Shown: positions 13,254 to 44,055 of the stretch, one piece after another
How positions within the stretch are numbered: position 1 is the stretch's first letter
Layout: each line of letters begins with the position of its first letter
NCBI GenBank assembly: GCA_965230935.1
Contig: OZ246400.1
Coordinates: 173,705 to 237,704 of the forward strand
Source: an uncultured Gammaproteobacteria bacterium
GTDB lineage: Bacteria; Patescibacteriota; Patescibacteriia; Magasanikbacterales; JBBTQS01
DNA length: 64,000 nt
Direction of reading: 5' to 3'
Made by a program: the position numbers and the translations under genes
The notes under the pieces: model-generated
Databases searched by the model: none
Seen by the model: the letters and a program-made list of their open reading frames with translations, nothing else
What the model was told of the DNA's origin: nothing

Positions 13254-13272
13254 GCCGACGTAATGCGTCGGC
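13254..13272. terminator. bidirectional hairpin between convergent genes 12656-13219 and 13305-14228
   Basis: gccgacg-taatg-cgtcggc perfect 7-bp stem. On the minus strand it is followed by a U-rich run. Confidence 0.6.
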
Positions 13273-13304
13273 TCGTTGTGTTGTTGGTGTGTGTCCTCAG
13301 ACGA

Positions 13305-14228
13305 TCAGGCGAACACCGAGGCGCCGCGGAACTGACGCATGACCCCACCTTTGAGGAAGGACAGATCACGCGACAAACGCAGTAGGTGCGCCAACTGCCG
13401 CTCAGTCTTGGTGCTCATCTTCTTGTGGTGTCGCTCCCAGAGCTCGGGCTGGGTGGCCGGATCAGGCACCTGGTAGCGCTGATCCTCGTGAGCCGGCAAC
13501 ACCGGAGCGATGCATTCGCCAAAGTGTTCGACCAAGGCCGCCAAAGGGAACACCTCCTCCACGCCCATGAGGTGGTAGTGAACCTCCTCGTCCTTGACCG
13601 GCGAGTAGCCGATCACCGCGGTATGCGCACGTTTGTACTCGTCCTTGGGCATGCCGGCCAGGTGCGGGGGGAACCCGCCCATGTCCAGCAGCGTCGGGTT
13701 GTGCCAGATGGCCATGGTGTTGGCAATGCGCCCCTCGAGAATCGACTCGGTGAGCTCGTTGATCGCCAGACCGGTAACCATGGCACCCTGCTCGAGCGCT
13801 GCCCACATGGCGTCGAAGTTCTCCTGCGTCAGGTACGGTTGAGCTTCTGTAGACGCGATCATGGAGAACTCACACCCATGCTGCAGCTGGATCCGCACTC
13901 CCTGATTGAGGATCGCGCAGTACAGGTCACCATAGGTGACGATGTGAACGGCCACATCAGCGACTCCGCTTTGCTTCATGGCATCGCACAGCGCCGCGTG
14001 TGTCTCGCCGCAGTCACTCTTGGCGTACCCATGTGCAGCCCAGACCAGCACGTCGACTCGCTTAAGGCGACTCAGCTGGTTGGCAAGGGTAAGCTGGTTG
14101 GCAGCACGGATCATCTCTACGACCTGTGCACACCGCTTCGGGACATCTTCTGCCTTCGTGGCAAAAGTGCGTAGGACAAGTCCTACATTGCGCACGCGCA
14201 TATTGCGCGGCTTGACCGAATTGGTCAT
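13305..14228 (-). CDS. hypothetical protein, high-GC cassette gene D
   Basis: 307-aa ORF with GGAGG SD 9 nt before ATG 14228. Body is strongly GC-rich with GC-rich codons. No domain recognised. Confidence 0.75.
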   Translation of the reverse strand: MTNSVKPRNMRVRNVGLVLRTFATKAEDVPKRCAQVVEMIRAANQLTLANQLSRLKRVDVLVWAAHGYAKSDCGETHAALCDAMKQSGVADVAVHIVTYGDLYCAILNQGVRIQLQHGCEFSMIASTEAQPYLTQENFDAMWAALEQGAMVTGLAINELTESILEGRIANTMAIWHNPTLLDMGGFPPHLAGMPKDEYKRAHTAVIGYSPVKDEEVHYHLMGVEEVFPLAALVEHFGECIAPVLPAHEDQRYQVPDPATQPELWERHHKKMSTKTERQLAHLLRLSRDLSFLKGGVMRQFRGASVFA

Positions 14229-14381
14229 TGGTTTCCTCCATAGTACTTCCCCAACGCATCAGGGAAATACGCAGTTGGCTTCTCACCGTACGACACTAGT
14301 CAGTTATCTGTCTTCTCCCTAACGCATCAGGAAAAATCAAGAACTGAGGGAACCGCGCCCCTACCGCTTGGCAAGACAAAA

Positions 14382-14409
14382 AGTATAGCAAAATTACTCC
14401 TTTTGTCAA
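14382..14409 (-). promoter_or_regulatory. sigma70-like promoter for gene D (minus strand: TTGACA-16-TATACT)
   Basis: Minus-strand reading ctaTTGACAaaaggagtaattttgcTATACTttt. About 145-nt leader to ATG 14228. Confidence 0.6.
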
Positions 14410-17450: not shown

Positions 17451-17479
17451 TTGACGAGGTTATGTAAGTTTTATACACT
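17451..17479 (+). promoter_or_regulatory. sigma70-like promoter for gene A (TTGACG-17-TACACT)
   Basis: cTTGACGaggttatgtaagttttaTACACTg, followed by a leader hairpin and SD. Confidence 0.6.
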
Positions 17480-17508
17480 GCAATCTCCCACTCATCAACA
17501 ATGGGAGA

Positions 17509-18576
17509 TTGGAGGTCGCTTTGAGCACACCTGAGCCTGCGGGCAAACCTGCGGTCCGGATTGTCCAGGCCGTGGACCAACCGAACATCAGCAAAGCGAT
17601 CCACGCATTGCTGTTGTTCTTCGAGGAGCGTAACTGGGTCGACAACGACGCCATGATCCTGGAGCTCGGTCGTGCGCTGCACGAGGGTCATCAGTGTTGG
17701 GCACCGGTGTACGATCGGGACGCGGTCGGGACGCGGCTCATCTACGTACTGCCGTTCGACGGAGCGCAAGGACAGCGTCGCAGCGCCACGCGCTGCGTCT
17801 GGGTGTCCACCGCACGAGCGGATCTGATGGTCGAGCACATGATCGAACTTACCACCGGGCCATACGGTCGTGGTCGTAAGGCGCCGTCGGAGGGCATGTT
17901 CATCCAGGACACCGCAGCAACCGATCACCTCAACGAGTGTATCGGTCGCAAGATCGGTCGTCCGTGGGAGGTCGCTGACATTGCGTATACCGCGTCGCAG
18001 ACTTTGGCCGCGTGGTGGGCGGAGCAGCACCCGGTTCCGGCGACGCGCCGACCGGGACGCCGCGAGCGACTCAGTGAAGAGTTGTTGGGACACGTCAGGG
18101 AAGCACTGCGTTCGTCACAGCAGTTCGCCGTGGCCCCACCGCGTGGGTCGAGTGGCATGGGTTTTTACGTCCTGCCGATCGACCAGTGGACGCTCCAGCG
18201 CTGCATCGGGATAACGCTCAACGGCCACGCTGCCGAGGATTTGTCCCGGGATCTCGCCGGTCGGATTCGTTTGCACCTTGGCGACCGTTGGGAGCTGGGT
18301 GGCGACGAGGGTCCGGTGGAGGCCGAGTCCGATGTCATGAGCGTGAGTTCGGACGAGATCGAGTTCGAGCTCGAGTTCGACGACGATGCGGATGACGACG
18401 CGGACGACGAGAACGTCGCAGAGGCCGTGGTAGTTTCGCAGGTTGTCTCCGGTGACGAGCCGACGCAGGAGGCCACGCCGAGTGCCGGCACTGCTCCCAC
18501 TGACGAGCAGATGTCCACCCCAGCTGAGGACGGCAAAGGGCGCTCCGAGGGCAACCCTCCGGTTGGCCCGGCGTAA
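17509..18576 (+). CDS. hypothetical protein with acidic C-terminal tail, high-GC cassette gene A
   Basis: 355-aa ORF. Likely real start is TTG 17521, 5 nt after GGAGG (17511-17515). GC-rich codons. C-terminal EFELEFDDDADDDADDE low-complexity region. No domain recognised. Confidence 0.75.
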   Translation: MEVALSTPEPAGKPAVRIVQAVDQPNISKAIHALLLFFEERNWVDNDAMILELGRALHEGHQCWAPVYDRDAVGTRLIYVLPFDGAQGQRRSATRCVWVSTARADLMVEHMIELTTGPYGRGRKAPSEGMFIQDTAATDHLNECIGRKIGRPWEVADIAYTASQTLAAWWAEQHPVPATRRPGRRERLSEELLGHVREALRSSQQFAVAPPRGSSGMGFYVLPIDQWTLQRCIGITLNGHAAEDLSRDLAGRIRLHLGDRWELGGDEGPVEAESDVMSVSSDEIEFELEFDDDADDDADDENVAEAVVVSQVVSGDEPTQEATPSAGTAPTDEQMSTPAEDGKGRSEGNPPVGPA

Positions 18577-18608
18577 CTTTAGCCATCACACAACACACAC
18601 AACATGAA

Positions 18609-18637
18609 GAACGCGCAAACAAGCGCGCTCTTTGTAT
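18609..18637 (+). terminator. hairpin terminator after gene A
   Basis: gaacgcgc-aaacaa-gcgcgctc stem followed by tttgtattct. Confidence 0.65.
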
Positions 18638-18710
18638 TCTGGACAAAAGTAATTTGTTATAGTATGTATAAGATACCTGCATAAGAGATAGTGCAGGAAG
18701 AGGAGATCAG

Positions 18711-19478
18711 ATGTCACATGACGAATCGGCAGCGCCCCCGCAAGTGCCGATTGAGGAGGCCATTGTTGGGTTTTGCGCCCACATTGGATTGGTCGCCCGG
18801 AGTTCGTTTGGCGAGGAGTTGGTTGCTGCGGTGTGCCGAAAGGCCGTCTGCGCGATCGACATACAACCAGACTGGGATCAACGGGCAGTCTTTCGCGTAC
18901 CAGCAAAGCACGACCGTGTCTCGGGCGTGTTCGCAGTGATCTTGCTCGACGACGCGCTGAGCGAGTCGCTGACCAATGACTTCAATGAGCTTCTGCTGGG
19001 CTATGGCGGCTCAGGAGAAGGAGATGTTGATCACTGGAGTCAGACGACCAAGCTCACCCGCGCGGTTCGTGGGCTCAAGAGCTGGTTCAAGGACAGAGGC
19101 ATCCGTCTGGAGGTTGGGGATATCAACAGCTTTGTCACCGCCTGGGAAACTGGTGAGGTGAGAGAGTGGTCGTTTGATCAAGGTCGTGGAGCACCGGTGA
19201 TTGCGTTCGTCGTGCGTCCGTACGATGCCCCCAGAGACGAACGACGAAACAGTGAAGTTTGCGTCGAGGTGCACTGGGGTGACAGGCTCAACCACGAGTT
19301 GACTGCTGGTCTGAACCAGATGATCGACGATGCGTTGGGCCCCGATCTTCACTGGGACGTTCGGCGAACCACGGATGAGGACGCGTCTACGTCTGCCCAT
19401 TTTGCTGCACAGGAGGTGGCAGCCATCGGGGGGCAACAGCGGGAGCAACCGCGCCGTCGCAGCGCTGTGGGCGAGTAA
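18711..19478 (+). CDS. hypothetical protein, high-GC cassette gene B
   Basis: 255-aa ORF. ATG preceded by GGAAGAGGAG SD. GC-rich codons. No domain recognised. Confidence 0.75.
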   Translation: MSHDESAAPPQVPIEEAIVGFCAHIGLVARSSFGEELVAAVCRKAVCAIDIQPDWDQRAVFRVPAKHDRVSGVFAVILLDDALSESLTNDFNELLLGYGGSGEGDVDHWSQTTKLTRAVRGLKSWFKDRGIRLEVGDINSFVTAWETGEVREWSFDQGRGAPVIAFVVRPYDAPRDERRNSEVCVEVHWGDRLNHELTAGLNQMIDDALGPDLHWDVRRTTDEDASTSAHFAAQEVAAIGGQQREQPRRRSAVGE

Positions 19479-19502
19479 CTCAACACAACACACAACACAG
19501 GG

Positions 19503-19529
19503 CCTCCGCTACAACTTAGTGGAGGTTTT
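19503..19529 (+). terminator. hairpin terminator after gene B
   Basis: cctccgcta-caact-tagtggagg 9-bp stem followed by TTTT. Confidence 0.7.
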
Positions 19530-19537
19530 GTAATATC

Positions 19538-19566
19538 TTGACAGGAAAGCTGTCGCATAGTATAGT
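19538..19566 (+). promoter_or_regulatory. consensus sigma70 promoter for gene C (TTGACA-17-TATAGT)
   Basis: cTTGACAggaaagctgtcgcatagTATAGTc. Confidence 0.7.
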
Positions 19567-19590
19567 CTCTTCTCTCCTCATTGCATTGCT

Positions 19591-20238
19591 TTGATTAACT
19601 ACCGGGGAGGGAAGGGGGCTAACACCTTGAGTGAAGATTGGCGCGGCTTTGTCGCGGCACGTGAGGAAGATCGCGTTGCTGCGCTTGGTGCCGCAATGTC
19701 TCATCTGATGCAGCGAGTGGGGTTCATTGACCCCAAATCGCCTGGGGACAAGAAGTCTCGGAAGGCGCTTGCACAGATGGGGTCGGCATTGGCTGCCATG
19801 ATCAGTGCCGCCCGTTCCGGTGACGTGTACATCACGGTGCTGCAGGGCGAGCAGACAGGTTCCGACGTGCTGATCCAGGTGTTGCCATTCGCCCCGACTA
19901 TGATCGGCGATGGCGACGATGCCGCGTTGGATCTGAGCATGCCGCGTCGCACTCGCGAGCGGCTGGTCATGGTCTACACTCTCTCGCCGAACGGCACTGA
20001 CCGTGGCTTCGAGTTCTCTCTGGATCTCACCACCAGCTTCAACACAGGTGTGCAGCAGGTCATCGACGTGCAGCACACATCACTCCTGCAACGAGGTTTG
20101 AGGCCCAGGGAGCGATCCGAGTCCCCCCCGGCACCAAATGGCTGGTTGACCTGGGAGGACTGGCTCGAGGAGTCGGCACGACGCGCCGAGCAGTCGGGGA
20201 CTGGAGGCGAGGAGGTCGAGGAGTCCTCAGGCTCCTGA
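19591..20238 (+). CDS. hypothetical protein, high-GC cassette gene C
   Basis: ORF from TTG 19591. More likely start is TTG 19627, 8 nt after the GGGGAGGGAAGGGGG SD-like run. GC-rich codons. No domain recognised. Confidence 0.7.
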   Translation: MINYRGGKGANTLSEDWRGFVAAREEDRVAALGAAMSHLMQRVGFIDPKSPGDKKSRKALAQMGSALAAMISAARSGDVYITVLQGEQTGSDVLIQVLPFAPTMIGDGDDAALDLSMPRRTRERLVMVYTLSPNGTDRGFEFSLDLTTSFNTGVQQVIDVQHTSLLQRGLRPRERSESPPAPNGWLTWEDWLEESARRAEQSGTGGEEVEESSGS

Positions 20239-20272
20239 TCACTCACAACAACAACCACACCACAACGGCAGG

Positions 20273-20297
20273 CCCGGCGTATACGCGACGGGTTTTC
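20273..20297 (+). terminator. hairpin terminator after gene C
   Basis: cccggcgtatacgcgacggg (contains the 10-nt palindrome gcgtatacgc) followed by TTTT. Confidence 0.6.
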
Positions 20298-35826: not shown

Positions 35827-35876
35827 TTAAACCGTTCTTGTGGTGCGCGTGCGCACCACAGATAACCGTTTGAATT

Positions 35877-36440
35877 ATGATTGATATTGTCCATGCCGCA
35901 GAGATTGCCAAAGACGCTGCACATGCAGTGGAGGCAACCGCAAGTGCAAACCCGATTGGAACATTTGGGTTAAATCTTAAGTTGTTTATTGCCCAGTTGG
36001 TCAACTTTGCAATTGTGTTGTTGGTGTTGTGGAAATGGGTATACAAACCATTGCTTAAGATTTTACGAGAGCGAACTGATACCATTGAAAAATCACTTGC
36101 CGATGCAAAACAAATTGAACAAGATCGTCTTGCAGCAGATGAAACAACGGCGGCACAGATTAAACAAGCTAAAGAAGAGGCGCGTGCAATCATTGCGCAA
36201 TCTGCAGAAAAAGCAGAGGCACTTGCGCTTGCAGGTAAGGAAAAAGCAACACAAGAAGTGGAGCAATTGGTGGCACAAGCGAAAGCGCAAATCGCAAGTG
36301 AGCGCACAGCAATGAAAGAAGAGTTAAAAGCTGAGACGATGACGCTGGCGGTAGCGGTAGCGCAAAAGATTTTGCAGGAGAAGATTGACACTAAGGCAGA
36401 CGCGACGCTAATTGCTAAAGCAGTTGATTCAGTGAAATAA
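35877..36440 (+). CDS. atpF: F0F1 ATP synthase subunit b
   Basis: N-terminal TM helix followed by a long charged coiled coil. Position between atpE and atpH. Confidence 0.85.
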   Translation: MIDIVHAAEIAKDAAHAVEATASANPIGTFGLNLKLFIAQLVNFAIVLLVLWKWVYKPLLKILRERTDTIEKSLADAKQIEQDRLAADETTAAQIKQAKEEARAIIAQSAEKAEALALAGKEKATQEVEQLVAQAKAQIASERTAMKEELKAETMTLAVAVAQKILQEKIDTKADATLIAKAVDSVK

Positions 36441-41213: not shown

Positions 41214-41242
41214 TTGACAAATATTCAATTTTAATGTATTGT
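41214..41242 (+). promoter_or_regulatory. sigma70-like promoter for Cys-rich lipoprotein gene (TTGACA-17-TATTGT)
   Basis: aTTGACAaatattcaattttaatgTATTGTg. Followed by a GC-rich structured leader (ggccacagtggcc palindrome; gccatg...catggc stem). Confidence 0.55.
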
Positions 41243-41337
41243 GCTACCTTATAGGAGGGCCACAGTGGCCAGCCATGCGGCGATGATTCCATGGCATGAA
41301 GCTGTGGGTTCTTTGACAATTAGAGGGGGTTCGAAAG

Positions 41338-43989
41338 ATGAATCGAATAGCTATTACCCTTGCCTTTGCCGCCCTGATCGCAGGGTGTGCAGACGCATCG
41401 GTAGATCCAGGAACGGTCGAGTGTTTCGGCGAGGCCTGTGCCAAGCCGGACGCCGATACGACCGGTGGTGGGGAGGTAGTCCCTCCGGATACCACACCGG
41501 ATGTCGGCGACACCGGTGATGACAGTGATGATCCGGATGTGCTCGAGACCGACGACGGTGCTGAGGTGGACGACATCAATGACGCCGATACGGCCGTCGA
41601 GGATGTGGACATCGACGTTCCGGACGAGGGTGATGATGGCGACACGCCGGATGTGCCCGAGACCAACGACGGTGCTGAGGTGGACGACACCGAGGACACC
41701 GACGAGACGACGGACACGGACGAGACCGATACGCCTGTTGATCCCTGCGATGGGGTCGACTGCACGGACGACAACCCGTGCACCATCGACGAGACGTGCG
41801 TGGATGGCGAGTGTGTCAGCTCGCCGGTCGTCTGCAACGATGACAATCCGTGTACGGACGATGCGTGCGTCGTGATTGAAGGTGGGTGCGTGTATACCCC
41901 GAACGCAGTGCTGTGTGAGGATGGCGACCCGTGTACGCTGGAGGACGCCTGTGTGGACGGTTCCTGTGCGCCTGGCGCACCGAAGATCTGCCAGGATGCC
42001 AACTTCTGCACCGTGGATGCGTGCGACCCGGTTTCCGGGGAGTGTGCCTTCGTGGTCGTGCCCGAGCCCTGCGATGATGGGAACGAGTGTACGCAGGAGG
42101 AGGTGTGTCAGCAGGACGCCACGTGTGGCAACGGGGCGGAAGTGGAGTGCGCAGACGAAGATCCGTGCACGAACGACAGCTGCAATCCGGACTCGGGTTG
42201 TGTGTTTGCTCAGAAGGAGTGCGACGACGAAGATCCGTGCACCGTTGACTTGTGCGAGACCGAGTCTGGCGAGTGTACCTTCGTGATCGTGCCGGAGTGC
42301 AAATGCGCTCCTGAGCAGTGTACGGACGACAACCCGTGCACGTCGGACGTGTGCAACCCGCTCGACGGGTCCTGCTCCTTCCCGTTCAACACGGAGCCGT
42401 GTGACGATGGCGACCCGTGTACGTTGGAGGACGCCTGTGCGGACGGTTCCTGTGCGCCTGGCGCGCCCAAGTCGTGTATCAGTGAGAACATCTGCCTGAG
42501 CGCGAGCTGCAATCCGGAGACGGGGAGCTGTGAGCTGAGTGAGAACACCGCGCCGTGTGACGATGGCGATGCGTGCACCCAGGAAGATGTGTGTAACGAA
42601 GGTTCGTGCGCTGGCGTGCTGATGGTGTGTACGGACGACAACCCGTGCACCGAAGGCGACACGTGCAATGGCGGCACTTGCGCCGCCGGGGAAGCCAAGG
42701 TCTGCGAAGACGGTAACCCCTGCACGGTTGGTGCGTGCGACCCGGATTCCGGGGAGTGCGCGTTTTCCCCGGACAACGGGGGAAGCTGCACGGACGACAA
42801 CCCGTGCACCAACGACGTCTGCCAGGACGGGGAGTGTGTGAGCGAGGCCAACAGCGCCTGCTGCACTGAAGACGCGCAGTGCGCTGACGAGCTGGCCTGT
42901 ACGCAGGACCAGTGCGTGGAGCAGTTGTGTAAGAACTTCGTCATTCCGGGCACCGGGCATTGCCTTATCGAGGAGGTGTGTATTCCGGAAGGGGTGGTCA
43001 ATTCGGCCAACGACTGTGAGGCTTGCACCTCGATGGTCAACCCCAACGGGTGGAGCCCGCTTGTGGATGGGAGCGATTGCGAAGATGGACAGGCGTGCAC
43101 CGAAGGCGACACGTGCAATGGCGGCACTTGCGCCGCCGGGGAAGCCAAGGTCTGCGAAGACGGTAACCCCTGCACGGTTGGTGCGTGCGACCCGGATTCC
43201 GGGGAGTGCGCGTTTTCCCCGGACAACGGGGGAAGCTGCACGGACGACAACCCGTGCACCAACGACGTCTGCCAGGACGGGGAGTGTGTGAGTACCACAG
43301 TCGCGTGCGACGACGGTCTCCCATGCACTCTGGATTCGTGTGACGAGGCGGGCGAGTGTCAGTACGAGCCCAAGACGTGTGACGACTCCAATCCGTGCAC
43401 CATCGATTCGTGCGAGCAGAGCACCGGCGATTGCGTAGGTGAGCTTGCTACGGTGAAGTTCCAGGACATCACCGCGGCCAAGTGCCTCACGCTTCCGCCG
43501 TTCATGCCATGGTTCGCGTTTGATGACTTCGATGACTCGGAGTCGCCCAATTCGAACATCTGGCACTGCGGTCACGACTGCCTGAACATCGACGCGGCCT
43601 GCCAGTCGCAAGTCGGTACGATCCGTCCCGGGTTTACGCACAACGGGGACCAGCACACCTTTACCATCGACCCGCAAGCAGCGTTTCCGGAACTTGACGG
43701 CATGACCATCTCGGCCGCCTTCACGTTCCGCAGGCAAGGGGTAACGCCCAACGACCTGACGCCGCCTGAGGTTGTGGTGAAGCAGACCATCGACGGAATC
43801 GAAACGGTGCTTGCCTCGCAGTTCCTGGGCAAATCACCGAACAACAATTTCGATTTCCTGGTCGAGTTCCTGGTTGGTGATGGTTTGGTCACGGTGTACT
43901 ACACGCCCAACGACTTCATCCCCGACTCGGAACGCACGCTGCACATCATGCTCGACTCGAACATCGAGCTGCAGCCTGTGTGTCCCTGA
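41338..43989 (+). CDS. large Cys-rich tandem-repeat lipoprotein (CxDDNPCTxDxC repeats, slime-mold/Dicty-CTDC-like)
   Basis: Lipoprotein signal (MNRIAITLAFAALIAGC), acidic D/E/T-rich linker, then roughly 20-25 repeats of about 22-25 aa with 4 Cys each (e.g. CTDDNPCTIDETCVDGECV). C-terminal roughly 170-aa Cys-poor domain. GC-rich codons. High-GC cassette gene E. Confidence 0.85.
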   Translation: MNRIAITLAFAALIAGCADASVDPGTVECFGEACAKPDADTTGGGEVVPPDTTPDVGDTGDDSDDPDVLETDDGAEVDDINDADTAVEDVDIDVPDEGDDGDTPDVPETNDGAEVDDTEDTDETTDTDETDTPVDPCDGVDCTDDNPCTIDETCVDGECVSSPVVCNDDNPCTDDACVVIEGGCVYTPNAVLCEDGDPCTLEDACVDGSCAPGAPKICQDANFCTVDACDPVSGECAFVVVPEPCDDGNECTQEEVCQQDATCGNGAEVECADEDPCTNDSCNPDSGCVFAQKECDDEDPCTVDLCETESGECTFVIVPECKCAPEQCTDDNPCTSDVCNPLDGSCSFPFNTEPCDDGDPCTLEDACADGSCAPGAPKSCISENICLSASCNPETGSCELSENTAPCDDGDACTQEDVCNEGSCAGVLMVCTDDNPCTEGDTCNGGTCAAGEAKVCEDGNPCTVGACDPDSGECAFSPDNGGSCTDDNPCTNDVCQDGECVSEANSACCTEDAQCADELACTQDQCVEQLCKNFVIPGTGHCLIEEVCIPEGVVNSANDCEACTSMVNPNGWSPLVDGSDCEDGQACTEGDTCNGGTCAAGEAKVCEDGNPCTVGACDPDSGECAFSPDNGGSCTDDNPCTNDVCQDGECVSTTVACDDGLPCTLDSCDEAGECQYEPKTCDDSNPCTIDSCEQSTGDCVGELATVKFQDITAAKCLTLPPFMPWFAFDDFDDSESPNSNIWHCGHDCLNIDAACQSQVGTIRPGFTHNGDQHTFTIDPQAAFPELDGMTISAAFTFRRQGVTPNDLTPPEVVVKQTIDGIETVLASQFLGKSPNNNFDFLVEFLVGDGLVTVYYTPNDFIPDSERTLHIMLDSNIELQPVCP
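42644..42842 (+). repeat. 199-bp perfect direct repeat, copy 1 (inside Cys-rich lipoprotein gene)
   Basis: Identical base-for-base to 43094-43292. Encodes CTEGDTCNGGTCAAGEAKVCEDGNPCTVGACDPDSGECAFSPDNGGSCTDDNPCTNDVCQDGECVS. Confidence 0.95.
43094..43292 (+). repeat. 199-bp perfect direct repeat, copy 2
   Basis: Identical to 42644-42842. The 450-nt offset is exactly 150 codons, so recombination between copies would be in-frame. Confidence 0.95.
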
Positions 43990-44020
43990 CCCTCAAGACA
44001 ACAACAAACCTACAACAGTA

Positions 44021-44055
44021 AGAGCTCTCCTTTCCAGGAGGGCTCTTTCTATTTA
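44021..44055 (+). terminator. hairpin terminator after Cys-rich lipoprotein gene
   Basis: agagctctcc-tttcca-ggagggctct 10-bp stem followed by ttctatttatt. Confidence 0.7.

Follow-up and report, generated by a model that had tools for sequence, protein, structure and literature searches.

Leader hairpins and self-contained GC-rich transcription units in a Patescibacteria genome

We analyzed a 64,000-nucleotide stretch of a bacterial genome from the Candidate Phyla Radiation (CPR), positions 173,705 to 237,704 of contig OZ246400.1 in GenBank assembly GCA_965230935.1. This whole stretch is referred to as the window, and positions are counted from its first letter. The subject of this study is a set of five GC-rich genes in the window, here named A to E, and the predicted RNA structures that lie upstream of their Shine-Dalgarno (SD) sequences. 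Homologues of AtpD place the genome in the Patescibacteria, near Uhrbacteria and Magasanikbacteria.

A class of GC-rich transcription units

Within this Patescibacteria genome the GC-rich genes stand apart as a class of self-contained transcription units. Each begins with a promoter that is either close to the sigma-70 consensus or of the extended -10 type, and continues with a short leader containing structure, a strong SD, a GC-rich open reading frame (ORF), a spacer consisting only of C and A, and a terminator hairpin (Table 1). GC content at third codon positions (GC3) is 0.65-0.76 in these genes, compared with 0.31-0.38 in host genes. All five have an SD with a predicted duplex energy of -9 to -11.4 kcal/mol, whereas a duplex of -7 kcal/mol or stronger was found for five of 46 host genes when alternative starts were allowed, leaving 41 without an SD (p=1e-4). 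In many host genes a -10 element lies 6-18 nt ahead of the ATG, from which we infer that they are leaderless or short-leadered.

Directly after the stop codon, and before the terminator hairpin, the GC-rich SD-led units carry a tract of 20-34 nt composed almost only of C and A (CA tract). A post-stop spacer free of G and U is present in all five GC-rich genes, as opposed to two of 47 host genes (p=8e-6), and a sixth, weaker unit has a CA tract as well. The CA tract is highly non-random and specific to this genome: among the orthologues of gene E a clear tract was seen at one locus only (L046), and homologues of gene D elsewhere lack one.

Genes A, B and C (17521-20238) are adjacent orphans, each with an acidic, probably disordered C-terminal tail. 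Homologue searches returned gene A alone among 5.8 billion proteins and gene B alone among 1.84 billion representatives, and an AlphaFold model of the gene B product made without an alignment was uninformative (predicted local distance difference test score, pLDDT, 36.6). Similarity between the A and B proteins is marginal (BLASTP E=0.17), and the two may be distant paralogues. Genes A to D had no matches in Pfam, PHROG or PADLOC; of the five genes, only E was matched, through its Dicty_CTDC repeat.

Table 1. Features of the GC-rich transcription units in the window
Feature	Position	Strand	Details
Gene A promoter-like site	17451-17479	+	TTGACG-17-TACACT; 9/12 consensus matches; predicted start ~17486
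Gene A leader hairpin	17483-17509	+	8-bp perfect stem, arms atctccca (17483-17490) and tgggagat (17502-17509), 11-nt loop; z=-3.5; SD not inside
Gene A SD and start	17511-17523	+	GGAGG (17511-17515), TTG (17521-17523); predicted duplex with ACCUCCUUU -10.0 kcal/mol; spacing 5 nt
Gene A ORF	17521-18576	+	351 aa; GC 0.64, GC3 0.75; orphan (sequence, homologue search)
Gene A 3' module	18581-18632	+	CA-only tract 18581-18608; terminator hairpin 18607-18632
Gene B probable extended -10	18655-18663	+	TGtTATAGT, read from sequence; predicted start ~18670
Gene B leader hairpin	18676-18697	+	stem of 6 Watson-Crick pairs and one G-U pair, loop of 8 nt; arms cctgca (18676-18681) and tgcagg (18692-18697); -9.4 kcal/mol
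Gene B SD and ORF	18698-19478	+	SD AAGAGGAG (18698-18705), ATG 18711; 255 aa; orphan
Gene B 3' module	19476-19529	+	CA tract 19476-19500; terminator hairpin ~19503-19525, then T-run
Gene C promoter	19538-19566	+	TTGACA-17-TATAGT; 11/12 consensus matches
Gene C leader	19567-19629	+	CU-run 19567-19579, two G-runs 19604-19618, TTG 19627; pairing possible, no better than shuffles
Gene C ORF and 3' module	19627-20297	+	203 aa; CA tract 20238-20270; terminator ~20273-20296
Gene D promoter and leader	14229-14409	-	TTGACA-16-TGcTATACT (14409-14382); 147-nt leader
Gene D leader elements	14354-14235	-	anti-SD GGUUCCCUC 14354-14346; first repeat copy 14336-14312; 12-bp hairpin 14270-14243; SD UGGAGG 14240-14235
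Gene D ORF and 3' module	13254-14228	-	ORF 13305-14228; CA tract 13297-13270; terminator 13272-13254
Gene E promoter and leader	41214-41337	+	TTGACA 41214-41219, TATTGT 41237-41242, 17-nt spacer
Gene E leader elements	41243-41329	+	5' motif GCTACCTTATAGGAGGG 41243-41259; compound hairpin 41260-41307; U-rich 41308-41317; SD AGAGGGGG 41322-41329
Gene E ORF and 3' module	41338-44050	+	883-aa lipoprotein, Cys-rich Dicty_CTDC repeats; CA tract 43989-44017; terminator ~44022-44045
CA tracts	18581-18608, 19476-19500, 20238-20270, 43989-44017	+
CA tracts	13297-13270, 21915-21881	-
Sixth, weaker unit	22472-21881	-	SD AAGGAG; 93-aa Cys-rich lipoprotein ORF, GC ~0.51; within 740 nt that lack a convincing gene

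Leader hairpins of genes A, B and D

A first-pass annotation of the window had proposed that each GC-rich gene carries a leader structure abutting its SD. This observation is partly confirmed. The stems, SDs and start codons described for genes A and B are exactly where they had been placed, and gene D, on which that annotation was silent, has a 12-bp hairpin ending 2 nt before its SD. Hairpin A ends one base before GGAGG and hairpin B directly at its SD; both SDs lie outside the stems and are unpaired in the leader folds. The 27-nt hairpin A alone has a predicted energy of -9.7 kcal/mol and can be extended to a 10-bp form over 17481-17511 (-13.2 kcal/mol). The claim did not hold for genes C and E. 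At gene C the G-rich segment was correctly located while the CU-run begins and ends one base downstream of its annotated position, and at gene E the palindromes have the coordinates given but end 27 nt before the SD and do not abut it.

Leader folds were compared with 200 dinucleotide shuffles each. The 53-nt leader of gene A (-19.5 kcal/mol, z=-3.5) was not equalled by any shuffle, and the 147-nt leader of gene D (z=-2.8) was equalled by a single one. The 51-nt leader of gene B (-10.5 kcal/mol, z=-1.9) exceeded its shuffles modestly, with 10 of 200 as good. Genes C (z=-1.3; 28/200) and E (z=-1.2; 24/200) could not be told from shuffled sequence. The host genes offer a second control, for which we took the best single hairpin between positions -45 and -6 of the five GC-rich genes and of 20 host genes with intergenic upstream DNA. 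The values for A, D and B (-13.2, -13.0 and -9.4 kcal/mol) indicate hairpins much more stable than the host median of -1.8 kcal/mol, with one host outlier at -14.8, and those for C (0) and E (-3.3) do not. Strong hairpins thus occur in three of five GC-rich leaders versus one of 20 host leaders (Fisher p=0.016). A random 40-nt leader would contain a perfect Watson-Crick stem of 8 bp, as in A, with a probability of 0.003 and one of 6 bp, as in B, with a probability of 0.044. Given the host-leader and chance-stem controls, the observation is valid for A, B and D and not for C and E.

The position of the 5' end matters for these results. Taking transcription to start 7 nt after the -10 element and refolding the leaders from there, the structures of B (z=-3.4) and D (z=-2.9) survive. 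Hairpin A loses three of its eight pairs (z=+0.65) unless transcription starts at 17482-17484, as predicted if the -10 element is read as TATACA (17472-17477).

The TTG start codons that had been assigned to genes A and C are plausible on sequence grounds. The segment of gene A between 17521 and the first in-frame ATG has a GC3 of ~0.77 by hand count, with the SD 5 nt upstream of the TTG; at gene C the SD would lie 8 nt upstream.

SD-adjacent hairpins are not general among SD-led genes of other CPR loci. There, the median best hairpin was -3.5 kcal/mol versus -2.3 (p=0.21), so that such a trait is unsupported for SD-led CPR genes as a whole and a hairpin next to the SD is not a requirement of the class.

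The gene D family and the orthologues of gene E

The predicted structure of the gene D product (pLDDT 91.5) suggests a distant GT-A glycosyltransferase-like fold. Homologues were found only in CPR metagenomes (53 proteins, 77 loci), where they are almost always SD-led and stand in differing neighbourhoods. In 49 of 53 loci their GC content exceeds that of the flanking DNA, the mean difference being 0.08 and the largest 0.21. Scans of viral contigs with the single sequence and with a profile returned nothing for D.

The leaders of this family share an RNA motif. Helix P1 is formed by an upstream CCAU and the AUGG of the SD UGGAGG, and within it lies a 9-bp hairpin (P2); conservation extends to the joining nucleotides, GAU and CUUACCAA. 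RNAalifold predicted no pairs on the raw MAFFT alignment of the leaders, and the structure was therefore specified by hand. In that alignment, changes on both sides were found for all 13 pairs, 73% of cells were paired against 60% in shuffles, and the covariation score was 0.451 against 0.249 in shuffles and 0.11-0.22 with the partners slid; none of 500 shuffles reached either observed value. A model-fitted alignment gave 78% paired and a score of 0.531, and across both alignments slid partners scored 0.09-0.24. A covariance model built on the motif finds it 5' of ~50 D homologues (loci L048-L124, for example L056:1853-1926, L051:2899-2976 and L059:995-1069), and no Rfam 15 family matches it. 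A possible second copy lies downstream of the D homologue at L117:4088-4168 (E=0.18). The motif thus combines conserved secondary structure with compensatory changes, as expected of a structured cis-regulatory leader. SD sequestration, in which an outer anti-SD:SD helix is formed around a hairpin, is supported for this family only, as a conserved regulatory leader.

The leader of gene D in the window is a derived form: besides the 12-bp hairpin it has a further copy of that sequence upstream, as well as a long-range anti-SD. It did not match the family covariance model (R1) at E<=1. In its minimum-energy fold, GGUUCCCUC (14354-14346) pairs with GGAGGAAACC across the SD. The 12-bp stem contains three G-U pairs and therefore works in RNA, being an imperfect DNA palindrome.

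Gene E lies in the slot between atpC and pcrA. Six related genomes, whose AtpD is 85-91% identical, have a Cys-rich lipoprotein gene in the same slot. These orthologues are 28-34% identical to E, compared with 46-51% for PcrA, and in every case are GC-richer (0.52-0.59) than the rest of the locus (0.43-0.51). Because the positional orthologues are each GC-richer than their surroundings, the composition of gene E is not that of a simple recent transfer, and since it is kept at such low identity, either selection or a gene-specific biased process might maintain it. The GC elevation of E appears to be maintained, neither passively inherited nor recently imported. The lipoprotein gene of this slot is fast-evolving (window 41338-43989 and L043, L045, L046, L126, L127 and L128; GC 0.52-0.62).

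In the window, the compound hairpin of gene E, which includes both palindromes mentioned above, is placed at the 5' end of the 89-nt leader rather than at the SD. GGAGGG follows just after the -10 element in five of the seven E loci (window, L127, L045, L043 and L046), with GGGGGG in L128. The window, L127 and L045 have GCUAC(C)CUUAUAGGAGGG in common right after the -10 element, L043 and L046 keep the GGAGGG core only, and L126 is divergent. A hairpin follows the motif in the window, L127, L045 and L128, conserved in position and not in sequence, with a U-rich stretch after it; in L043 and L046 the hairpin contains the motif itself. This arrangement resembles the STAB-SD of Bacillus thuringiensis cryIIIA, in that a few nucleotides separate the SD-like run from the 5' end predicted for the transcript, the real SD is ~60-80 nt further downstream, and there is apparently no conserved start codon at 5-10 nt from the run. 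Genes A, C and D also have a second SD-like run upstream of the real one. The present leaders differ from STAB-SD in that the run is often paired with a pyrimidine segment, and the window copy has an unconserved GTG 5 nt downstream. According to work named in the reference list of PMC3997798, the cryIIIA mRNA is stabilised by such an SD-like element near its 5' end.

Interpretation of the leader hairpins

We propose that the hairpins of A, B and D are real stem-loops of the 5' untranslated region and that those of A and B have a protective or insulating role close to the 5' end rather than acting as translational gates. We give this reading a probability of roughly 40%. The A and B stem-loops would stand between the predicted 5' end and an SD that they leave unpaired, and the most likely mechanism is one similar to that of the 5' stem-loops of Bacillus subtilis aprE and Escherichia coli ompA. 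As listed among the references of PMC3997798, aprE mRNA is stabilised by a 5' stem-loop plus ribosome binding and ompA mRNA likewise by a 5' stem-loop followed by a strong free SD. A hairpin near the 5' end, with a strong ribosome-binding site directly after it, could block 5'-end-dependent decay, presumably by RNase J in the CPR, and could also keep the upstream sequence folded locally, so that the SD escapes capture by the GC-rich coding region. The outcome would be an efficiently initiated, long-lived mRNA. Judging by composition alone, the GC-rich body, the ribosome-free spacer without G and U and the terminator hairpin may fit the same picture of an insulated transcript. RNase J (rnj), RNase III and PNPase are kept in at least 90% of CPR genomes (PMC12641178).

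Several features of A and B agree with the aprE and ompA pattern: a short leader, a stable stem-loop that would lie at or close to the promoter-predicted 5' end, and a strong, un-occluded SD directly downstream (predicted duplexes of -10.0 kcal/mol for A and -9.0 kcal/mol for B, outside the stems). The hairpins begin 0-6 nt from the transcription starts predicted from the promoters; for A this start would be placed either 2-3 nt into the 5' arm or immediately ahead of that arm, and hairpin B would begin at about +6. Unlike the model systems, which they do not resemble in sequence, these leaders have predicted 5' ends, belong to a CPR host that mostly lacks SDs, and are known from sequence alone.

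A number of results weigh against this proposal. Genes C and E have no hairpin at the SD, and the SD-led genes of other CPR loci show no general enrichment. With a start at 17486, only 5 bp of hairpin A are left and its advantage over shuffled sequence is gone. When A is folded in full, its SD is predicted to pair with codons 3-5 (probability of being unpaired 0.21), so that the hairpin gives no guarantee of an open SD. Genes A and B are orphans for which the searches returned only the genes themselves, so that their hairpins draw no support from conservation or covariation, and the assemblies of this population are all identical across the region and offer no natural variants.

The first-pass annotation had favored translational gating, in which the leader structures keep translation down and are remodelled by temperature or by binding of a protein, a small RNA or a metabolite. 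As an explanation for the class this appears unlikely to us, and it is partly supported, through gene D. In the D family a covarying helix pairs part of the SD and encloses a hairpin with conserved joining nucleotides, as in a thermometer or riboswitch platform, and in the minimum-energy fold of the window's own D leader the SD region is paired to GGUUCCCUC; gating is therefore plausible for D, judged from its leader. Weak TTG starts are probable for two of the genes. The leaders of A, C and E contain a pyrimidine segment, similar to an anti-SD, that pairs with an SD-like purine run upstream, and a factor that broke this pairing could redirect the segment to the true SD. At gene A, however, a duplex between the 5' arm and the true SD (-3.8 kcal/mol) is 6 kcal/mol weaker than the observed hairpin (-9.8 kcal/mol). 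For gene C gating is weakly plausible: its 5' CU-run, part of which coincides with the predicted start site, can form 13 bp with the first of the G-runs (-19.4 kcal/mol), no better than composition-matched shuffles, and neither C nor E folds better than shuffled leaders. A thermosensor at A and B is not borne out. Thermosensors typically contain weak or mismatched pairs, whereas the stems of A and B are perfect and, with energies of -15 to -8 kcal/mol, remain stable between 10 and 45 C. Both SDs lie outside the hairpins, and melting would therefore expose nothing. In the window and the D-family loci, Rfam returned nothing relevant at gathering or E<=1 thresholds, including for ROSE, fourU and riboswitch families, and the family model itself misses the window D copy.

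That the A and B hairpins have no function, being chance or compositional by-products or donor leader remnants of horizontally acquired, moron-like genes, seems to us a more doubtful account still. The sample is just five leaders, the B stem has a chance expectation of 4%, A depends on the exact start site, and neither gene has homologues. Like phage morons or a horizontal island, the units are single GC-rich genes, each equipped with a promoter and a terminator of its own and differing in composition from its neighbours. On the other hand, the chance expectation for the 8-bp stem of A is 0.3%, and hairpins are in excess over host leaders (three of five versus one of 20). The units stand among housekeeping genes with no prophage, there were no matches to PHROG, PADLOC or the viral contigs of IMG/VR, and GC elevation is seen in 49 of 53 lineages of the D family. 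Gene E is no recent arrival, as a long-standing positional orthologue with promoter and leader features is present in six related genomes. We regard it as improbable, too, that the A and B palindromes are DNA operators overlapping the start sites and bound by dimeric repressors, with the RNA hairpin incidental. In both, the Watson-Crick dyad is perfect, the A palindrome having 8 bp around an 11-bp spacer and the B palindrome 6 bp around a 10-bp spacer, and their location, about +1 to +27 relative to the predicted starts, is classic for an operator. The two have no common sequence, however, and would need two regulators in a ~1 Mb genome; the analogous D hairpin, with its G-U pairs, makes a poor DNA palindrome, and covariation in the stems of the D family follows RNA pairing, with G-U pairs among the changes.

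The protective stem-loops proposed here would themselves be of a known kind, and greater interest attaches to the gene class, the RNA motif of the D family and the CA tracts. In other CPR loci (L040, L039, L043 and L045) the few SD-led genes are GC-elevated and mostly unannotated, and across 23 CPR loci the GC3 of SD-led genes exceeds that of other genes by 0.067 (p=4.5e-4). The presence of SD-led, GC-elevated genes in several CPR loci and in the D and E families indicates that the class and its GC elevation are persistent and do not stem from one recent transfer. Codon selection for high expression was considered as the cause of the elevated GC3 and rejected, since rplY, rpsB and tsf of L040 have a GC3 of only 0.21-0.25 and atpD of the window has 0.38.

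We tentatively suggest, knowing that this may well prove wrong, that some Patescibacteria run two expression regimes, one of SD-less, AT-rich, short-leadered or leaderless housekeeping genes and another, in the minority, of insulated, SD-led, GC3-elevated lineage-specific units with strong promoters, structured leaders and terminators. The leader hairpins and CA tracts would then be parts of a design for long-lived or separately translated mRNAs, with the GC elevation kept by selection or by a gene-specific biased process. The insulated class may include surface lipoproteins, the GT-A-like enzyme and orphans, with the CA-only 3' spacer in this genome. To our knowledge, almost nothing has been established experimentally about how genes are regulated in the CPR. 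If the leaders do stabilise or insulate, they would mark the genes in which these tiny cells invest most and would be ready-made expression parts for the few cultivable CPR systems. The by-products of the analysis may outweigh the hairpins. They are a covarying leader RNA, absent from Rfam, 5' of a CPR-specific GT-A-like family; a sharp division, in several CPR lineages, of housekeeping genes that lack an SD from GC-elevated genes that are led by one; and a stop-to-terminator spacer of C and A only.

Three further observations concern other parts of the window. The only host leader with a strong hairpin (~35832-35871 on the forward strand, UGUGGUGCGCGUGCGCACCACA, -14.8 kcal/mol) lies in the ATP synthase cluster, just upstream of an ORF at 35877, and may be an internal terminator, an attenuator or a processing site. 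The ORF of the sixth unit, which the first-pass annotation had missed, contains a DDSNPCTN motif that resembles the repeats of gene E, and a second, overlapping frame (22239-21913) has a stop codon at which the CA tract begins, followed by the hairpin; this unit may be a frameshifted gene. Gene E itself contains a perfect 199-nt direct repeat (42644-42842 and 43094-43292) beside older, diverged repeat families, which is either a recent intragenic duplication or recombination or an assembly artefact.

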